Assembly (NCBI GenBank): GCA_041649175.1
Contig: JBAZNR010000001.1
Span: 588,956 to 652,955 of the forward strand
DNA length: 64,000 bases
DNA from: Candidatus Omnitrophota bacterium
Lineage (GTDB): Bacteria > Omnitrophota > Gorgyraeia > Zapsychrales > JBAZNR01
Reading direction: 5' to 3'
Shown here: positions 3,006 through 15,686 of the stretch, piece by piece
Numbering within the stretch: position 1 is the first letter of the stretch
How the letters are laid out: every line of letters starts with the position of its first letter
Notes under the pieces: generated by a model
Databases searched by the model: none
Seen by the model: the letters and a program-made list of their open reading frames with translations, nothing else
Told to the model about the DNA's origin: nothing
Program-made: the position numbers and the translations under genes

Positions 3006-4844
3006 ATGTGCGGTATCGTCGGCTATGTCGGCCACAAAAATGCCGCCCCTATTCTTTTAGACGGCCTTAAAAAGTTAGAATACCGCGGCTATGACTCCAG
3101 CGGTATCGCGGTCATCGCGCGCGATAAAAGTAAGATCGCTGTGCGAAAAAATCAGGGCAAGATCAAAGCCTTAGAAGAGCTTATTCAAAGCAAGCATCTG
3201 CCCGAAAGCTTTTTAGGAATCTGCCACACCCGTTGGGCCACTCACGGAAAACCTAACCGCACAAACGCTCACCCTCACTGTGATTGTTCCGGAAAAATCG
3301 TTGTCGTTCATAACGGTATTATCGAAAATTATCAGGAATTAAAGAAATTCCTTCAGGAAAAAAACCATACCTTTTCCTCCGAAACCGACACGGAAGTCAT
3401 TGCCCACCTCATTGAACATTATTACAAACAGAAAAAAGATTTTCTATCGGCGGTACGCCGGGCGATCGTCCAACTTAAAGGGTCTTTTGCCTTAGGGATC
3501 CTTTGTTCGGATGATCCCGATCGCTTGATCGCGGCGCGGGTGGGTTCTCCTTTGATCGTTGGCATCGGCAAGGGTGAGAATTTTATCGCATCGGATGTTC
3601 CGGCCATTTTGGATAAAACTAAAAAAGTTATCTATTTATCCGACGGGCATATGGCGGTTTTAACCAAAGGTAAAGTGGAAGTATCGACCTTTTCCGGGAA
3701 AAAAGTTCCAACCAAGATCCACACCGTGGCGTTTAAAGTGGGCGCGGCGCAAAGAGAAGGTTTTGCCCATTTTATGCTCAAAGAGATCCACGAGCAACCG
3801 GCTGTTTTGTCACAAATTTTATCTTCAAGGCTAAAGGGAAACCGCGTTTACCTTGACGGGATTTCATTAAACGATCGTCAGTTACGCGAATTTCAAAATG
3901 TGGTGGTGGTGGCCTGCGGAACGGCGTATCACGCCGGAATGGTCGGAAAATATTTGATCGAACAATTTGCCCAAATTCCTGTTTGGACCGATCTTTCCAG
4001 CGAATTTCGTTACCGATTTCCTTTGGTCAGCAAGAAAACTTTAGTTGTGGCGATCAGCCAATCCGGAGAAACAGCCGATACGCTGGCGGCGGTCAAGGAA
4101 GCGAAGCTAAAGGGAGCAAAAGTTATTTCTATTTGTAACGCGGTTGGTTCGTCTTTAGCGCGCGAATCCGACGGAATTTTGTATACGCATGCCGGCCCGG
4201 AAATCGGCGTTGCCTCCACGAAAGCTTATACGGCGCAATTGATGATGTTGTATTTATTAGCGCTCAAACTTGCCACAGCACGCGGGAAAATAAGATCGAA
4301 AGAATTAAATGAGATCGTCAAAGAATTAAAACATATTCCGGCGCTTTTGAAAGATATTTTAAATAATAAAGACAAGATAGCCCAGGTTGCCCGCGCCAAT
4401 TCGCACTTTGGATGTTTTTTATTCTTAGGGCGCAACATCAATTTCCCGACGGCGCTGGAAGGCGCTTTAAAATTAAAAGAGATCTCTTATATTCCGGCGG
4501 AAGGTTACGCGGCCGGAGAAATGAAGCACGGGCCCATCGCTTTAATTGATGAATACCGCGCGGTTGTCTGTATCGCGCCGCAGTCGGATATTTACGATAA
4601 GATGATCTCCAATATGCAGGAAATTAAAGCGCGCCGAGGAAAAATTATCGCCATTGCCACATCCGGCGATGAAACGATCAAGCATCACGCCAGCCACGTT
4701 GTCTATATTCCTAAAACACACAAGATCTTAACGCCGCTTTTGGCGGTCGTACCTTTACAGCTTATTGCGTATTATATCGCCGTTAAACGCGGGTGCGATG
4801 TAGACCAGCCGCGGAATTTAGCGAAATCTGTAACGGTTGAATAA
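3006..4844 (+). CDS. glmS: glutamine--fructose-6-phosphate aminotransferase (isomerising)
   Basis: MCGIVGY N-terminal nucleophile, two SIS domains, C-terminal ...SVTVE. Confidence 0.95.
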   Translation: MCGIVGYVGHKNAAPILLDGLKKLEYRGYDSSGIAVIARDKSKIAVRKNQGKIKALEELIQSKHLPESFLGICHTRWATHGKPNRTNAHPHCDCSGKIVVVHNGIIENYQELKKFLQEKNHTFSSETDTEVIAHLIEHYYKQKKDFLSAVRRAIVQLKGSFALGILCSDDPDRLIAARVGSPLIVGIGKGENFIASDVPAILDKTKKVIYLSDGHMAVLTKGKVEVSTFSGKKVPTKIHTVAFKVGAAQREGFAHFMLKEIHEQPAVLSQILSSRLKGNRVYLDGISLNDRQLREFQNVVVVACGTAYHAGMVGKYLIEQFAQIPVWTDLSSEFRYRFPLVSKKTLVVAISQSGETADTLAAVKEAKLKGAKVISICNAVGSSLARESDGILYTHAGPEIGVASTKAYTAQLMMLYLLALKLATARGKIRSKELNEIVKELKHIPALLKDILNNKDKIAQVARANSHFGCFLFLGRNINFPTALEGALKLKEISYIPAEGYAAGEMKHGPIALIDEYRAVVCIAPQSDIYDKMISNMQEIKARRGKIIAIATSGDETIKHHASHVVYIPKTHKILTPLLAVVPLQLIAYYIAVKRGCDVDQPRNLAKSVTVE

Positions 4845-4975
4845 ATGATCAAAAACCAAATTCCAATAACCAAATAATTTACAATATTCAATAATCGAAT
4901 TCCAAACGGTTTGGCTATTGAGAATTGGTTATTGTGATTTATTTGGTTATTGTTGCTTGGTGATTGGAATTTAAA
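4845..4975. repeat. palindromic intergenic repeat element, copy B
   Basis: aatgatcaa...caaattccaataaccaaataat...ttatttggttattg...ttggaattt. Same family and symmetry as 2596-2715. Confidence 0.45.
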
Positions 4976-5647
4976 ATGCTATATATTGTTTCTACACCTA
5001 TCGGTAATTTAAAAGACATCACCTTTCGCGCTGTTGAAACGCTTCAACAAGTTGATATTATCGCCGCTGAAGATACCCGCCATAGCAAAATCCTTTTAGA
5101 TCATTACAATATTCAAAAACCTCTTTTAAGCTACTTTGAACATAATCAAGTCAAACGTGGGGAAGAGATCATTAAGCTCTTGAAAGACGGGAAAAATGTG
5201 GCTTTGGTAACGGACGCCGGGACGCCAGGAATAAGTGATCCGGGTTTTCATCTGATTCGCTTGGCGCAGGAAAACGAAATTCCTATTTATGTGATTCCCG
5301 GTGCGACGGCTTTAATCACCGCGCTTTCCGCGTCAGGTTTGCCAGCGCATGCCTTTATTTTTGAAGGATTTTTGCCGGTTAAATCTGCCGCCCGGCGTAA
5401 AAAGTTGGGAGGCTTTAAAGACGAGCGGCGGACCGTTATCTTTTACGAATCTCCTCATCGCATTGTTTCGGCTTTGGAAGACATCAAAGACGTTTTAAGT
5501 GACCCGGTTGTTGTTGTGGCGCGCGAGTTAACCAAGAAGTTTGAAGAGATCAAAAAAGGAAAGGCAAGCGTGCTTTTGGCGCATTTTGAGAAGTCAAAGC
5601 CTAAGGGCGAGATAGTGTTATTGTTCAATTTGACCGTAGAAAAGTAA
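4976..5647 (+). CDS. rsmI: 16S rRNA (cytidine1402-2'-O)-methyltransferase
   Basis: LYIVSTPIGNLKDIT tetrapyrrole-methylase N-terminus typical of RsmI. Start could be 4964. Confidence 0.85.
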   Translation: MLYIVSTPIGNLKDITFRAVETLQQVDIIAAEDTRHSKILLDHYNIQKPLLSYFEHNQVKRGEEIIKLLKDGKNVALVTDAGTPGISDPGFHLIRLAQENEIPIYVIPGATALITALSASGLPAHAFIFEGFLPVKSAARRKKLGGFKDERRTVIFYESPHRIVSALEDIKDVLSDPVVVVARELTKKFEEIKKGKASVLLAHFEKSKPKGEIVLLFNLTVEK

Positions 5648-11769: not shown

Positions 11770-11790
11770 TTGGTCAATAATCAACCTTTA

Positions 11791-11816
11791 AGCTTAGCCC
11801 TGTGAGGCTGGCAAGG
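11791..11816 (+). promoter_or_regulatory. PyrR-binding loop (anti-antiterminator) in pyr leader RNA
   Basis: AGCUUAGCCCUGUGAGGCUGGCAAGG matches the conserved PyrR box (..CC.G.GAGGCU.GCAAGG) of Bacillus-type pyr attenuators. Confidence 0.6.
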
Positions 11817-11853
11817 AAAACAAAATGGAAGTTTATATTACGAAATTTATTAA

Positions 11854-11890
11854 GCGCGTTTTTTCGAGAGAAAAAACGCGCTTTTTCTGT
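11854..11890 (+). terminator. pyr leader attenuator terminator
   Basis: Perfect 12-bp stem GCGCGTTTTTTC-GAGA-GAAAAAACGCGC followed by TTTTTCTGT, immediately upstream of pyrR. Confidence 0.7.
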
Positions 11891-12444: not shown

Positions 12445-13375
12445 TCCTCTCTGGACCCGTAAAGATCTTTTGGGATTGCAGGAACTTTCCTCCCAAGAGA
12501 TAGAGCTTATTTTAAATACCGCCGCCTCATTCAAAGAAGTTTCTACCCGCGAAATAAAAAAGGTTCCGGCCCTTCGCGGCAAAACCGTGGTCAATCTATT
12601 CTATGAACCGTCCACCCGCACCCGCGTTTCCTTTGAAGTGGCCGCCAAACGCCTTTCCGCTGACGTCATCAATATATCGGTAGAAACATCCAGTGTCAAA
12701 AAAGGCGAAACGCTTTTAGATACCGGCGCTAATATCCAAGCCCTTAAAGCCGATATTATCGTGATGCGCCATAGCGCGTCCGGAGCGGCTTTAATGCTTG
12801 CCCGTCATCTTAAATCAAGTATTGTCAATGCCGGTGACGGTTGGCACGAACATCCCACCCAAGCGCTTTTGGATATGTTCACCTTAAAAGAAAAATTAGG
12901 CCGTATCAAAGGGCTTAATGTGGCTATCGTTGGCGATATCGCTCATTCGCGCGTGGCGCGTTCTAACATTTGGGGTTTAACAAAATTAGGAGCGAATGTA
13001 ACGGTGTGTGCGCCCGCAATGCTGATTCCGGCGGAAATTGAGAAAATGGGCGTAAAAGTCACATCCGATATTGATGAAGCTTTAAAAAACGCGGATGCGG
13101 TCAATGTGCTTCGTATGCAATTCGAGCGTGACGCACAAAACGCCTTTCCTAAACAGCTGGAATATTTTAAGAATTTTGGCATCACCAAAGAACGCCTTTT
13201 AAAGGTGAAAAAAGATATTATTGTGATGCATCCCGGACCATTAAATCGCGGCATAGAAATGGAAAGCGATATTGCCGATGGGAAAAACTCGGTCATCTTA
13301 GAACAGGTCACCAACGGCATCGCCGTTCGTATGGCGGTTTTATATCTGGTATCGCAAGGACAACAGCAAACATGA
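12422..13375 (+). CDS. pyrB: aspartate carbamoyltransferase catalytic subunit
   Basis: STRTRVSFE and HPTQALLD signatures. Apparent TTG start overlapping the pyrR end. Confidence 0.95.
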
Positions 13376-14646
13376 AAATTCTTATCAAAAATGGAATTGT
13401 GGTCGATCCGGCGAGTAAACTAAACGAAATAAGCGACGTTTTGATCAAAGACGGCAAGATTAGCAAAGTCGCTAAGAGCATTTCTGACGCGGCCGATAAA
13501 ACGATCGACGCCAAAGGAAAAATTGTTGCTCCGGGTTTAGTCGATATGCATGTGCATTTGCGCGAACCCGGCCGTGAAGATAAAGAAACCGTTGAAACCG
13601 GAACGCGCGCGGCCGCTTTCGGCGGCGTGACATCGGTTTTATGTATGCCCAATACAACGCCGGCCTTGGATTCGGTGGCAACCGTTCGTTTACTTAAAGA
13701 TTCCATCAAAAAAACCGCTTCAGTGAATGTTTTTATCTGCGGCGCTATTACCGTTGGGCGTCAAGGTAAAAAAGTGGTTAATATCGCCGCTTTAAAAGAT
13801 GAAGGTGTTTTAGCTTTAAGCGATGACGGCAGTGAGGTTGAAGATGACGCGATTTTTCTTGAGGCCTGCAAAAAAGCGAAGAAAGAAAATATCTTGATCG
13901 ACTGCCACTCGGAAGACCGAAAACTTTCCAACAATGGCGTGATGAACTTAGGATATATGTCCACCATTTTGGGACTGCGCGGGATATCGCGCGAGTCGGA
14001 ATATAAATGCATTGAGCGCGATATTACTATTGCCGCTAAGGCGGACGCGCGCATTCATATTTCTCATGTCAGTTGCCGCGAGTCGGTTGAGGTGATCGCG
14101 CGTTTTAAGAAAAAAGGTGTAAAGGTAAGCGCGGAAACCGCGCCGCATTACTTTTGGCTTTGCGATGAAGATTTACTCGATTATGATACGCATAAAAAGA
14201 TGAACCCACCGCTGCGCACCAAAGATGATAGAGAAGCGATGAAACAGGGTTTGCGTGATGGAACATTGGAAGTTATCGCCACCGATCACGCGCCGCATAC
14301 ACAAAATGAAAAGGAAGTGGAGTTTGACCATGCGGCCTTTGGGATTTTGGGCTTGCAAACAAGCTTGGCGCTTTCAATAGGTGCTTTGGTTGAAACAAAG
14401 ATCTTGGATTGGCCCGGGCTTATTGCCAAAATGAGCCTTAATCCGGCGCGCATTATGCAGGTAGATAAGGGAACTTTAAAGGCGGGCGCGGACGCTGACG
14501 TGGTCATCATTGATCCAAATAAAGAGTGGATTTTTCAAAAAGAAGATATTCTTTCCAAATCCAAGAATTCACCTTTTGTCGGATGGAAATTAAAGGGGAA
14601 GGTGGAAACGACGATTTGCGGTGGAAAAGTGGTTTATCAAGATTAG
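13372..14646 (+). CDS. pyrC: dihydroorotase
   Basis: DMHVHLREPG metal-binding motif; amidohydrolase fold length. Confidence 0.9.
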   Translation: MKILIKNGIVVDPASKLNEISDVLIKDGKISKVAKSISDAADKTIDAKGKIVAPGLVDMHVHLREPGREDKETVETGTRAAAFGGVTSVLCMPNTTPALDSVATVRLLKDSIKKTASVNVFICGAITVGRQGKKVVNIAALKDEGVLALSDDGSEVEDDAIFLEACKKAKKENILIDCHSEDRKLSNNGVMNLGYMSTILGLRGISRESEYKCIERDITIAAKADARIHISHVSCRESVEVIARFKKKGVKVSAETAPHYFWLCDEDLLDYDTHKKMNPPLRTKDDREAMKQGLRDGTLEVIATDHAPHTQNEKEVEFDHAAFGILGLQTSLALSIGALVETKILDWPGLIAKMSLNPARIMQVDKGTLKAGADADVVIIDPNKEWIFQKEDILSKSKNSPFVGWKLKGKVETTICGGKVVYQD

Positions 14647-14718
14647 GCCCCCATAGCTCAATGGATAGAGTACTAGCCTCCGGCGCTGGGTGTACAGGTT
14701 CGACTCCTGTTGGGGGCG
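14647..14718 (+). tRNA. tRNA-Arg (anticodon CCG)
   Basis: Cloverleaf folded by hand: acceptor GCCCCCA/TGGGGGC, D-arm GCTC...GAGT, anticodon stem CTAGC/GCTGG with loop CTCCGGC, T-arm ACAGG-TTCGACT-CCTGT, discriminator G. No encoded CCA. Confidence 0.85.
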
Positions 14719-14745
14719 CTCTTTGAGATGCAACAGCCTCTTGAA
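14717..14745. repeat. direct repeat DR1 (GCGCTCTTTGAGATGCAACAGCCTCTTGAA) abutting the tRNA-Arg 3' end
   Basis: Repeated near-identically at 14886-14915. Confidence 0.7.
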
Positions 14746-14767
14746 AATCCCGAGACGCAGTCGAGGG

Positions 14768-14799
14768 ACGGCGCTGTTGGTGCAGGCTCGACTCCTGCC
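14768..14799 (+). pseudogene. partial duplicate of tRNA-Arg 3' half (anticodon-stem/T-arm fragment)
   Basis: ACGGCGCTGTTGGTGCAGGCTCGACTCCTGCC aligns to CCGGCGCTGGGTGTACAGGTTCGACTCCTGTT of the intact tRNA. Confidence 0.5.
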
Positions 14800-14816
14800 G
14801 AACAATTGTAGCGTGG

Positions 14817-14888
14817 AAGTAGTAGGTCCCCTGCGGGGACCGGGCGCGTATATTCGAAGTAGTAGGCCCCCTTTGGGGGCTAGGCGCG
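14817..14888. repeat. two tandem hairpin repeat units GAAGTAGTAGG-(GC palindrome)-GGCGCG
   Basis: Units at 14817-14848 and 14857-14888, each with an internal GC-rich palindrome (TCCCCTGCGGGGA and CCCCCTTTGGGGG). Confidence 0.6.
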
Positions 14889-14915
14889 TTCTTTGAGATG
14901 CAACAGCCTCTTGAA
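14886..14915. repeat. direct repeat DR2 (GCGTTCTTTGAGATGCAACAGCCTCTTGAA)
   Basis: Second copy of DR1, about 170 bp downstream. Confidence 0.7.
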
Positions 14916-14946
14916 CAGGCTTGGGGACAGACATACGCAGAGATTA

Positions 14947-14979
14947 GGGTCAGGCCCCACCTGCGGTGGGGCCTGACCC
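14947..14979. terminator. GC-rich hairpin GGGTCAGGCCCCACC-TGC-GGTGGGGCCTGACCC
   Basis: Perfect 15-bp stem. No obvious U-run, so it is a structural element or terminator of uncertain function. Confidence 0.4.
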
Positions 14980-15221
14980 TAAGTCAGAGACGGGAAAAAG
15001 TGGAAACCACAAAATGTAGGGCTTTCCACAGAATATACACAATATGCATAAATTGTTAATAATGGAGTAATTGACCCATAACATAGTCTAATTTTGTATA
15101 ATAGTGGATTAAATATACATAATTAATCAATAAATATAGTATATTGTGCATAATTAATACATATCAAAAAACAGCAATTTTCCACAGATTTTTGGCAAAA
15201 TCAATCAAATAGGAGCTCACT

Positions 15222-15686
15222 TTGAGCCATCAAAAAATAACCATATCCGTGATCGGCGGACATGACTGCAACAAAGAAGTGGAGCAATTATCCCATAAAA
15301 TTGGCAAAATAATTGCTAAAATGGGTTCTGTCTTGGTTTGTGGCGGTTTAGATGGGGTTATGCGGGAGGCGGCAAAAGGAGCTAAAAGCTGTGGCGGGCT
15401 GACGATTGGGATACTGCCGGGTAAGAATAAATCTGACGCCAACCCCTTTATCGATATTGCCTTGCCAACTTCTATCGGGTATTCCCGTAATGTCATCGTA
15501 GCTTGCTCGGCGGATATCATCATTGCCTTGCCCGGAAGCCACGGAACCCGAAGCGAAATATCTTACGGCCTTGTTTATGGGCGTCCGGTCATTGATCTGG
15601 GCGGCTGGAATATTAAAGGAATGATCAAGGTTAAAGACCTCAAAGAAGCAGAACAAGTAATCAAGAAGCTAATTAAGGGTTCTTAG
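15222..15686 (+). CDS. LOG-family / TIGR00725-like Rossmann-fold protein (SLOG)
   Basis: VIGGHDC...VCGGLDGVMREAAKGA...GILPG pattern of the LOG/TIGR00725 family. TTG start with an AGGAG RBS 6 nt upstream. Confidence 0.65.
   Translation: MSHQKITISVIGGHDCNKEVEQLSHKIGKIIAKMGSVLVCGGLDGVMREAAKGAKSCGGLTIGILPGKNKSDANPFIDIALPTSIGYSRNVIVACSADIIIALPGSHGTRSEISYGLVYGRPVIDLGGWNIKGMIKVKDLKEAEQVIKKLIKGS

Follow-up and report, generated by a model that had tools for sequence, protein, structure and literature searches.

In tRNA genes, integrases usually cross over in the T loop or in the anticodon loop. Successive integrations at the same gene leave partial tRNA copies in tandem, as in the tycheposons, where the newest unit lies nearest to the tRNA (10.1101/2020.12.28.424599). 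Elements that have kept their att sites after the loss of the integrase have also been described, together with the accretion of CIMEs and IMEs (PMC5704250), and tRNA gene fragments or pseudo-tRNAs, arising from integration or from other rearrangements, have been tied to identifiable elements or to CRISPR activity (PMC9897764).

The window considered here is a stretch of 64,000 nucleotides taken from a 1.23-Mb metagenome contig (ENA ERZ27247363, k141_2258133) of a Candidatus Omnitrophota bacterium. In this window, a tRNA-Arg(CCG) gene is followed by a GC-rich, hairpin-rich, non-coding block of about 265 nt (14720 to 14984). The block resembles the attL/attR scars of tyrosine integrases in its location at the 3' side of a tRNA, in the inclusion of the tRNA terminus in a direct repeat, and in a displaced 3' fragment that begins in the anticodon loop. 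Furthermore, relatives vary in the presence of the block, and two other loci (L093 and L150) show a tandem accretion comparable to that of tycheposons (10.1101/2020.12.28.424599) and of CIMEs and IMEs (PMC5704250). However, different from such scars, the block has no integrase, cargo, attP or known parent, only about 137 nt lie between its repeats, and the exact part of the repeat is trailer. A CIME would have an intact attL and attR recognizable as those of a known ICE or IME; no parent element is known for Omnitrophota, and the insert of the window has no homologue in any of the collections searched. As in the cases collected in PMC9897764, a non-functional partial copy stands beside an intact gene, but, unlike those cases, no element can be identified here. 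We tentatively favor, with a probability of roughly four in ten, the reading of the block as a decayed, non-coding and immobile recombination scar at the 3' half of a tRNA, which acted as a hot spot.

The tRNA-Arg locus and its closest relatives

The functional tRNA-Arg(CCG) gene (14647 to 14719, + strand), called by ARAGORN and scoring 61.4 bits against the Rfam tRNA family, lies in a pyrimidine cluster with the order pyrR, pyrB, pyrC, tRNA-Arg(CCG), SLOG cluster-4, fpg, a PEMT-like gene, pyrK, pyrD, pyrF and tRNA-Val. The TAG stop codon of pyrC (dihydroorotase; 13372 to 14646, + strand; Pfam Amidohydro_1/DHOase) is directly against the 5' end of the tRNA (14644 to 14647). On the other side, the SLOG cluster-4 (LOG-like) gene (15222 to 15686, + strand; Pfam PF18306) is the conserved downstream neighbor of tRNA-Arg(CCG) in Omnitrophota, with the synteny occurring in 45 of the 48 loci that carry this tRNA. 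A minus-strand ORF of 114 amino acids (14590 to 14934) was considered as a coding sequence and rejected, as it has no Pfam match and overlaps the tRNA.

The sequence-only reading of this stretch had reported that no integrase is present, and we could confirm this, the neighbors being pyr genes, SLOG, fpg and the PEMT-like gene; no integrase was found in the pyr-gene neighborhood, and none of the 48 examined loci has one adjoining its tRNA-Arg. Likewise, no cas, tnpB or cas1 genes were found nearby, nor terminal inverted repeats, which gives little reason to consider RNA-guided or casposase-like mechanisms (with a 17- to 18-nt "guide" or a long target duplication).

The public proteins nearest to the PyrC of the window are 80% identical to it, and the next ones are at most 65% identical. 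In the closest relative, L082 (GCA_040960315.1), which has the 80% identical PyrC and the same tRNA with one mismatch, the tRNA is followed by about 40 nt and then by an AT-rich spacer homologous to positions 14985 to 15220 of the window, and the block at 14720 to 14984 is absent. In L084, whose SLOG protein is 78% identical, the AT-rich spacer alone is present, and the block is absent as well. Thus, the comparison of relatives at this tRNA, which the sequence-only reading had proposed as a check, revealed a presence/absence polymorphism. Since the block is missing from both relatives and its GC content (0.585) departs from those of the adjacent spacer (0.283) and of the whole window (0.428), it is a derived, lineage-specific addition.

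A PHP/MJ0043_C-domain gene (1.3 to 2.7 kb) stands between pyrC and the tRNA in all close relatives and is not found in the window, whose lineage has deleted the whole segment between pyrC and the tRNA, this gene included. In L082, the segment corresponding to the pyrC-tRNA junction of the window spans positions 3813 to 5444. The same relative carries, upstream, a split and decayed second copy of tRNA-Arg (5249 to 5271 and 5362 to 5380).

Downstream of the block, the AT-rich ancestral spacer (14985 to 15221, + strand; GC 0.28), homologous to that of L082, contains between 15020 and 15210 (e.g., 15063 to 15091 and 15126 to 15206) the decayed beginning of the SLOG coding sequence (15222 to 15320), about 90 nt of it, in one or two copies. 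Such copies also occur in L082 (5589 to 5680), and the local alignment scores of 17.5 and 19.0, obtained for the spacers of the window and of L082, were equalled by 6 of 1000 and 0 of 1000 shuffles, respectively. These copies could be either the remnant of a duplication or a regulatory mimic. By eye, the motif TGGAGYAnnnnnnCCCAYAA was also noticed in the spacers of L084, L085, L088 and L091. A replication origin at 15000 to 15220 was considered on account of TTTCCACA-like motifs and rejected, as there is no switch of GC skew and a single DnaA-box match occurs, against 1.5 expected.

Anatomy of the block

The first copy of the direct repeat (14713 to 14745, + strand) consists of the last 7 nt of the tRNA and of a 26-nt trailer, indicated here as T1 (14720 to 14745), while the second copy (14883 to 14915, + strand) includes a trailer identical to T1, indicated as T2 (14890 to 14915). 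Over their 33 nt, the two copies are 94% identical; only the first 7 nt are inside the tRNA, both mismatches fall there, and the exact 26 nt are trailer throughout. It follows that the repeat of the tRNA 3' end announced by the sequence-only reading is real, but that its exact part does not belong to the tRNA, to which it is anchored by seven imperfect nucleotides. Similarly, the distance of about 170 bp that was said to separate the repeats corresponds to the start-to-start spacing (170 nt), whereas 137 nt actually lie between the copies. The exact 26-nt repeat occurs twice in the 64 kb, where none is expected (100 shuffles), and it was not found in the related loci or in the JGI metagenomes; it is thus not a generic intergenic repeat.

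T1 is followed by a 23-nt junction segment with a small hairpin (14746 to 14768, + strand), which has no detectable similarity to the 5' half of the tRNA (1952 of 2000 shuffles scored at least equally) or to the sequence after T2. The next element is a partial copy of tRNA-Arg(CCG), 29 to 31 nt long (14769 to 14799, + strand), which starts in the anticodon loop (CGGC), with the 3' part of that loop, and proceeds along the variable loop and through the T arm. In an ungapped alignment over 29 nt, positions 14769 to 14797 are 83% identical to positions 14681 to 14709 of the tRNA, and the embedded tRNA fragment that had been noticed earlier (at 14768 to 14799) is therefore well founded. Neither ARAGORN nor Rfam calls this partial copy.

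Among the tRNA-Arg(CCG) genes of other Omnitrophota, the best match of the fragment is that of L012 (91% over 23 nt, E = 8e-5; 87% in a second comparison), so that the fragment is nearer to alleles of other lineages than to the adjacent gene (83%). Moreover, an A-T pair in the T stem of the adjacent tRNA is replaced by G-C in the fragment, whose T loop carries mutations (CTCGACT). Given the greater similarity to the L012 allele and the paired change in the T stem, the fragment descends from a different, functional tRNA-Arg allele, as would be expected of an attB/attP partner, and it is now dead.

A gapped alignment places the two tRNA 3' halves colinearly over their whole length, which begins in the anticodon loop and finishes with the trailer, except that about 75 nt occupied by hairpins break up the second one. 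In particular, the order is 14769 to 14797, about 75 nt with two hairpin units, the TTGGGGGC acceptor 3' strand (14873 to 14880), and T2. The first hairpin unit, H1 (14816 to 14855, + strand), with the sequence GAAGTAGTAGG-GTCCCC TGC GGGGAC-CGGGCGCGT..., is unique in the window, and the second, H2 (14856 to 14889, + strand), has the stem GCCCCC/GGGGGC, equal to the tRNA acceptor stem; its 3' strand is the TTGGGGGC segment that continues the colinear second copy. The two are tandem 40-nt units with 82% identity between 14816 to 14849 and 14856 to 14889. The GTCCCCnnnGGGGAC hairpin of H1 is also found downstream of tRNA-Arg in L010, L012 and L100.

Past T2, a perfect 18-bp palindrome with a 3-nt loop (14944 to 14982, no strand assigned; -39.8 kcal/mol, z = -7.9) represents a separate small insertion with respect to L082, which lacks it, and has CAGAGA on both sides (14938 to 14943 and 14985 to 14990). 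In terms of folding stability, the palindrome alone is exceptional, the other segments being close to shuffles (z between -0.65 and -1.4). The hairpin units (14816 to 14889), the palindrome and the colinear, interrupted second 3' half add to what the sequence-only reading had described. Being small GC-rich palindromes in an AT-rich spacer, the palindrome and H1/H2 resemble REP and MITE elements, and a structured palindromic repeat, the "B core," is dispersed in both orientations in related genomes. However, REP and MITE elements have multiple dispersed copies in a genome, and for the hairpin units and the palindrome no further copy was found in the 64 kb of the window or in related loci totalling 1.2 Mb; they also have no match to the B core and no clear target-site duplication.

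Within 14600 to 15250, Rfam matched the tRNA and nothing else at E < 0.01, and no known RNA family was found in the block or in the spacers of the relatives. TRF reported no tandem array in the block. The terminator scan identified no intrinsic terminator on the + strand between 14720 and 14990, and no hairpin there is followed by a T run, the hairpin tails in the block being GGGCGCG, AGGCGCG and GTCAGAG.

A full tandem duplication of the tRNA gene followed by pseudogenisation was considered and rejected; it requires a second 5' half, and the segment from 14746 to 14768 is unlike both the 5' half of the tRNA and the sequence after T2. Since the tRNA-derived parts are 83% identical and the trailer repeat is 100% identical, either at least two events took place or the constraint was unequal, and the tRNA-like fragment is older than the 26-nt repeat or of another origin. 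The trailer of L082 aligns weakly to both T1 and T2 (8 to 11 of 500 shuffles reached the same score) and does not discriminate which copy is ancestral.

The searches for copies and for an attP covered the 64-kb window, the related loci and the collections listed below. Outside its own position, the block has no copy in the window; none was found in 161 related loci either, or among viral, JGI-metagenome, phage and plasmid sequences, and no cargo gene was found in the block. As for an attP, the repeat had 0 matches in viral and JGI metagenome contigs, and the tRNA 3' end had 0 in viral contigs; the common tRNA-Arg 3' end of Omnitrophota matched only phage tRNA arrays in viral contigs, and the family-B motif returned nothing useful there. 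The expectation that the repeat might be met next to an integrase or in an element elsewhere was thus not borne out in the viral and JGI-metagenome contigs, nor was the block itself found in phages and plasmids.

Inserts at the tRNA 3' end across Omnitrophota

When extra copies of the last 18 nt of the tRNA were searched for with at most 3 mismatches, 13 copies were found in 11 of the 48 Omnitrophota tRNA-Arg(CCG) loci, against an expectation of 0.29 and with no match in the reversed-probe controls. All 13 are on the same strand as the tRNA and between it and SLOG, 107 to 319 nt downstream. The inserts measure 105 to 166 nt in the other loci, a range into which the 137 nt of the window fits. 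The copies start mostly at tRNA positions 55 to 57, in the T loop, and some of them at 49 to 50 or at 39; the starts at 55 to 57 were seen in at least four unrelated insert families. In L093 and L150, two units are arranged in tandem, the newest being the one that adjoins the tRNA, and for most inserts no further copy of the same insert comes next.

Several insert sequence families are common to different lineages, and none of the families of other lineages has sequence in common with the window insert. One family is found both at tRNA-Arg (L090) and at tRNA-Val (L034), in each case ending in the local tRNA 3' end, with a similarity score of 18.5 that was reached by 0 of 1000 shuffles. In L034 (5771 to 5949, - strand), tRNA-Val(TAC) is followed by a structured insert of 160 nt, after which 18 nt of the tRNA 3' end are repeated. 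At other tRNAs, such inserts were found in 1 of 16. In L095, the duplication of the tRNA 3' end takes in over 100 nt of trailer and seems, as judged by eye, to reach about the SLOG start codon.

Across 45 loci, the spacer from the tRNA to SLOG ranges from 0 to 2400 nt, and the tRNA-Arg-SLOG junction is a general insertion hot spot, hypervariable across Omnitrophota. Protein-coding cargo is also encountered at this junction. In particular, L083 carries a SAM methyltransferase (2148 to 2900), which is present in L087 too, L152 has two ORFs without a Pfam match (266 to 2457), L092 has a small ORF whose product looks secreted by eye (1474 to 2051), and the insert of L003 encodes a CARDB-domain protein. 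The larger inserts of L083, L152 and L003 contain no integrase.

The block itself is nothing unusual, being non-coding debris next to an intact tRNA, with little import for this genome, and its annotation as a gene, an island or an array of pseudo-tRNAs should be avoided. The only part worth pursuing is the recurrence, throughout the phylum, of inserts that are uniformly small and terminate in the 3' end of a tRNA; these offer a handle for finding recombinases and elements in Omnitrophota, a group with small genomes, largely uncultured, whose mobile elements are poorly known. In addition, the tRNA-Arg-SLOG site represents a convenient marker for strain and lineage typing.

Origin of the block and other elements at the junction

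The bounds of the target repeat, the boundaries of the copies in the T loop and in the anticodon loop, and the tandem units beside the tRNA fit recombination at a tRNA hot spot, and we infer that a site-specific recombinase of the tyrosine-integrase type made the block. According to this reconstruction, DNA would have been inserted at the tRNA or just after it, leaving a 26- to 33-nt repeat of the tRNA end and trailer on either side of about 137 nt. The inserted DNA would have included the displaced 3'-half fragment of tRNA-Arg from a different allele, ancestral or foreign; hairpin units would then have been duplicated inside the insert, giving H1 and H2, and the 39-nt palindrome inserted nearby. 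The element carrying the recombinase would be gone or would have acted in trans. After excision, the junction of the empty site would read ...GGGGGCGC-T-CAGGCTTGG and that of the circle ...CTAGGCGCGT-T-AATCCCGAG. At present, the block is probably without function, and the most that its hairpins could provide is a 3' barrier for the pyrRBC-tRNA transcript.

The att-site scar proposed by the sequence-only reading is consequently retained in part: an insert bounded by repeats and containing a displaced tRNA fragment is there, it is absent in the closest relatives, and comparable cases recur in 11 of 48 loci, but integrase, cargo and attP are lacking and the anatomy is not that of canonical att sites. 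A further point against the scar is that about 140 bp is too small for an autonomous element.

A close rival of the scar reading, which we judge somewhat unlikely, dispenses with a recombinase and with a mobile element altogether. Small local duplications, through replication slippage or template switching at the tRNA hairpins, or illegitimate recombination with DNA of related Omnitrophota anchored on the tRNA, would have produced the block, followed by decay and hairpin expansion. What brings this rival close is that the spacer also holds the decayed copies of the SLOG 5' end; these cannot come from a tRNA-specific integrase, and being present in the spacers of both the window and L082 they point to duplications at gene ends without tRNA specificity, which keeps local duplication or illegitimate recombination a serious alternative. 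The identity of T1 and T2 at a distance of only 170 nt, the tandem arrangement of H1 and H2 as a 40-nt pair, the duplication of the tRNA end with a long trailer in L095, the decayed second tRNA-Arg copy upstream in L082, and the failure to find an integrase or an attP are in line with the same explanation. However, the sequences after T1 and T2 are unrelated, contrary to a simple tandem duplication, and the allele nearest to the tRNA fragment is not the adjoining one. Furthermore, random ends would differ, whereas the copies start at 55 to 57 in at least four unrelated insert families, and the lack of a second self-copy after most inserts, as well as of a tandem array according to TRF, is not what this rival leads one to expect.

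It is also possible to hypothesize, with more doubt, that the block is the representative, in this lineage, of a class of miniature elements not described before, which would be non-coding and hairpin-rich, about 105 to 170 nt long, and would insert at the 3' halves of Omnitrophota tRNAs. Such elements would carry or duplicate 17 to 33 nt of the tRNA end, would accumulate in tandem with the newest by the tRNA, and would depend for their movement on a recombinase that is encoded elsewhere and acts in trans. The hypothesis is drawn from the 11 of 48 tRNA-Arg(CCG) loci and the 1 of 16 other tRNAs, from the uniform sizes and the starts in the T loop, and from the family common to tRNA-Arg and tRNA-Val.

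Less probable still is a functional explanation, in which selection maintains the hairpins as RNA elements of the pyrRBC-tRNA transcript, be it for termination, as a barrier at the 3' end or for processing, and the repeats are by-products. As the tRNA abuts the stop codon of pyrC, the two are probably co-transcribed and a downstream end is needed; GC-rich hairpins follow tRNA-Arg in many lineages, the palindrome is extremely stable, and five of the seven occurrences of the GTCCCCnnnGGGGAC hairpin in 1.23 Mb are located 33 to 147 nt downstream of tRNA-Arg. On the other hand, the hairpins of the block lack T runs, the terminator scan was empty on the + strand, the segments other than the palindrome fold about as their shuffles do, and no Rfam family was recognized. 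Moreover, the closest relatives do without the block, and the tRNA fragment and the trailer repeat would be left unexplained. Finally, a false duplication created by MEGAHIT in joining strain variants is very improbable, even though the contig is a single short-read metagenome contig from only one sample, given that repeats of 26 to 40 nt are far below the final k-mer of 141 and cannot induce misjoins, that the two copies stand in different contexts with diverged tRNA-like parts, and that comparable structures occur in many independent assemblies.

Apart from the scar that we favor at the tRNA of the window, other structured elements were noticed in related loci. A conserved element, AACAAGCGTTGCCAG-AGGGACnGTCCCC-loop-GGGGACnGTCCC-CGACAAGATAAGGG, directly follows tRNA-Arg(CCG) in L010 (5640 to 5730), L012 (4575 to 4640) and L100 (about 640 to 710) and has no Rfam match. 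The spacers of L004 (3069 to 3300), L015 (7490 to 7773) and L033 (8007 to 8135) share an element that is closed by a long helix (...GTCTTGTCTTG ... CCAAGCCACCCGC...), with TTGACAATAAATAT in front; Rfam has no match for this element, which is possibly a small RNA transcribed from a promoter of its own.

A third type is a dispersed structured repeat of Omnitrophota, about 70 to 100 nt long, with the pattern GGG-(A/T)TTAATTCGC...ACTTAYGTC-(variable hairpin)-TCCRTAAGT...GCTCATTAA. It was located in L093 (4066 to 4138), L095 (1598 to 1683), L150 (5716 to 5798, 5893 to 5981 and, on the - strand, 491 to 580), L016 (2047 to 2115), L033 (2197 to 2300, - strand), L099 (442 to 515, - strand), L014 (6987 to 7070, - strand), L094 (1024 to 1104) and L091 (1024 to 1127). 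The repeat occurs in both orientations, at tRNA-linked as well as non-tRNA intergenic sites, and has no Rfam match; compensatory changes are present in 13 of its 18 predicted pairs, and it could represent either an undescribed RNA or an element of the REP/MITE kind.

In the window itself, a PyrR-binding attenuator is located upstream of pyrR (11781 to 11888, + strand; 58.5 bits), and two matches to the c-di-GMP-I riboswitch are found at 45240 to 45358 and 50337 to 50415, both on the - strand, with 44.3 and 36 bits, respectively.
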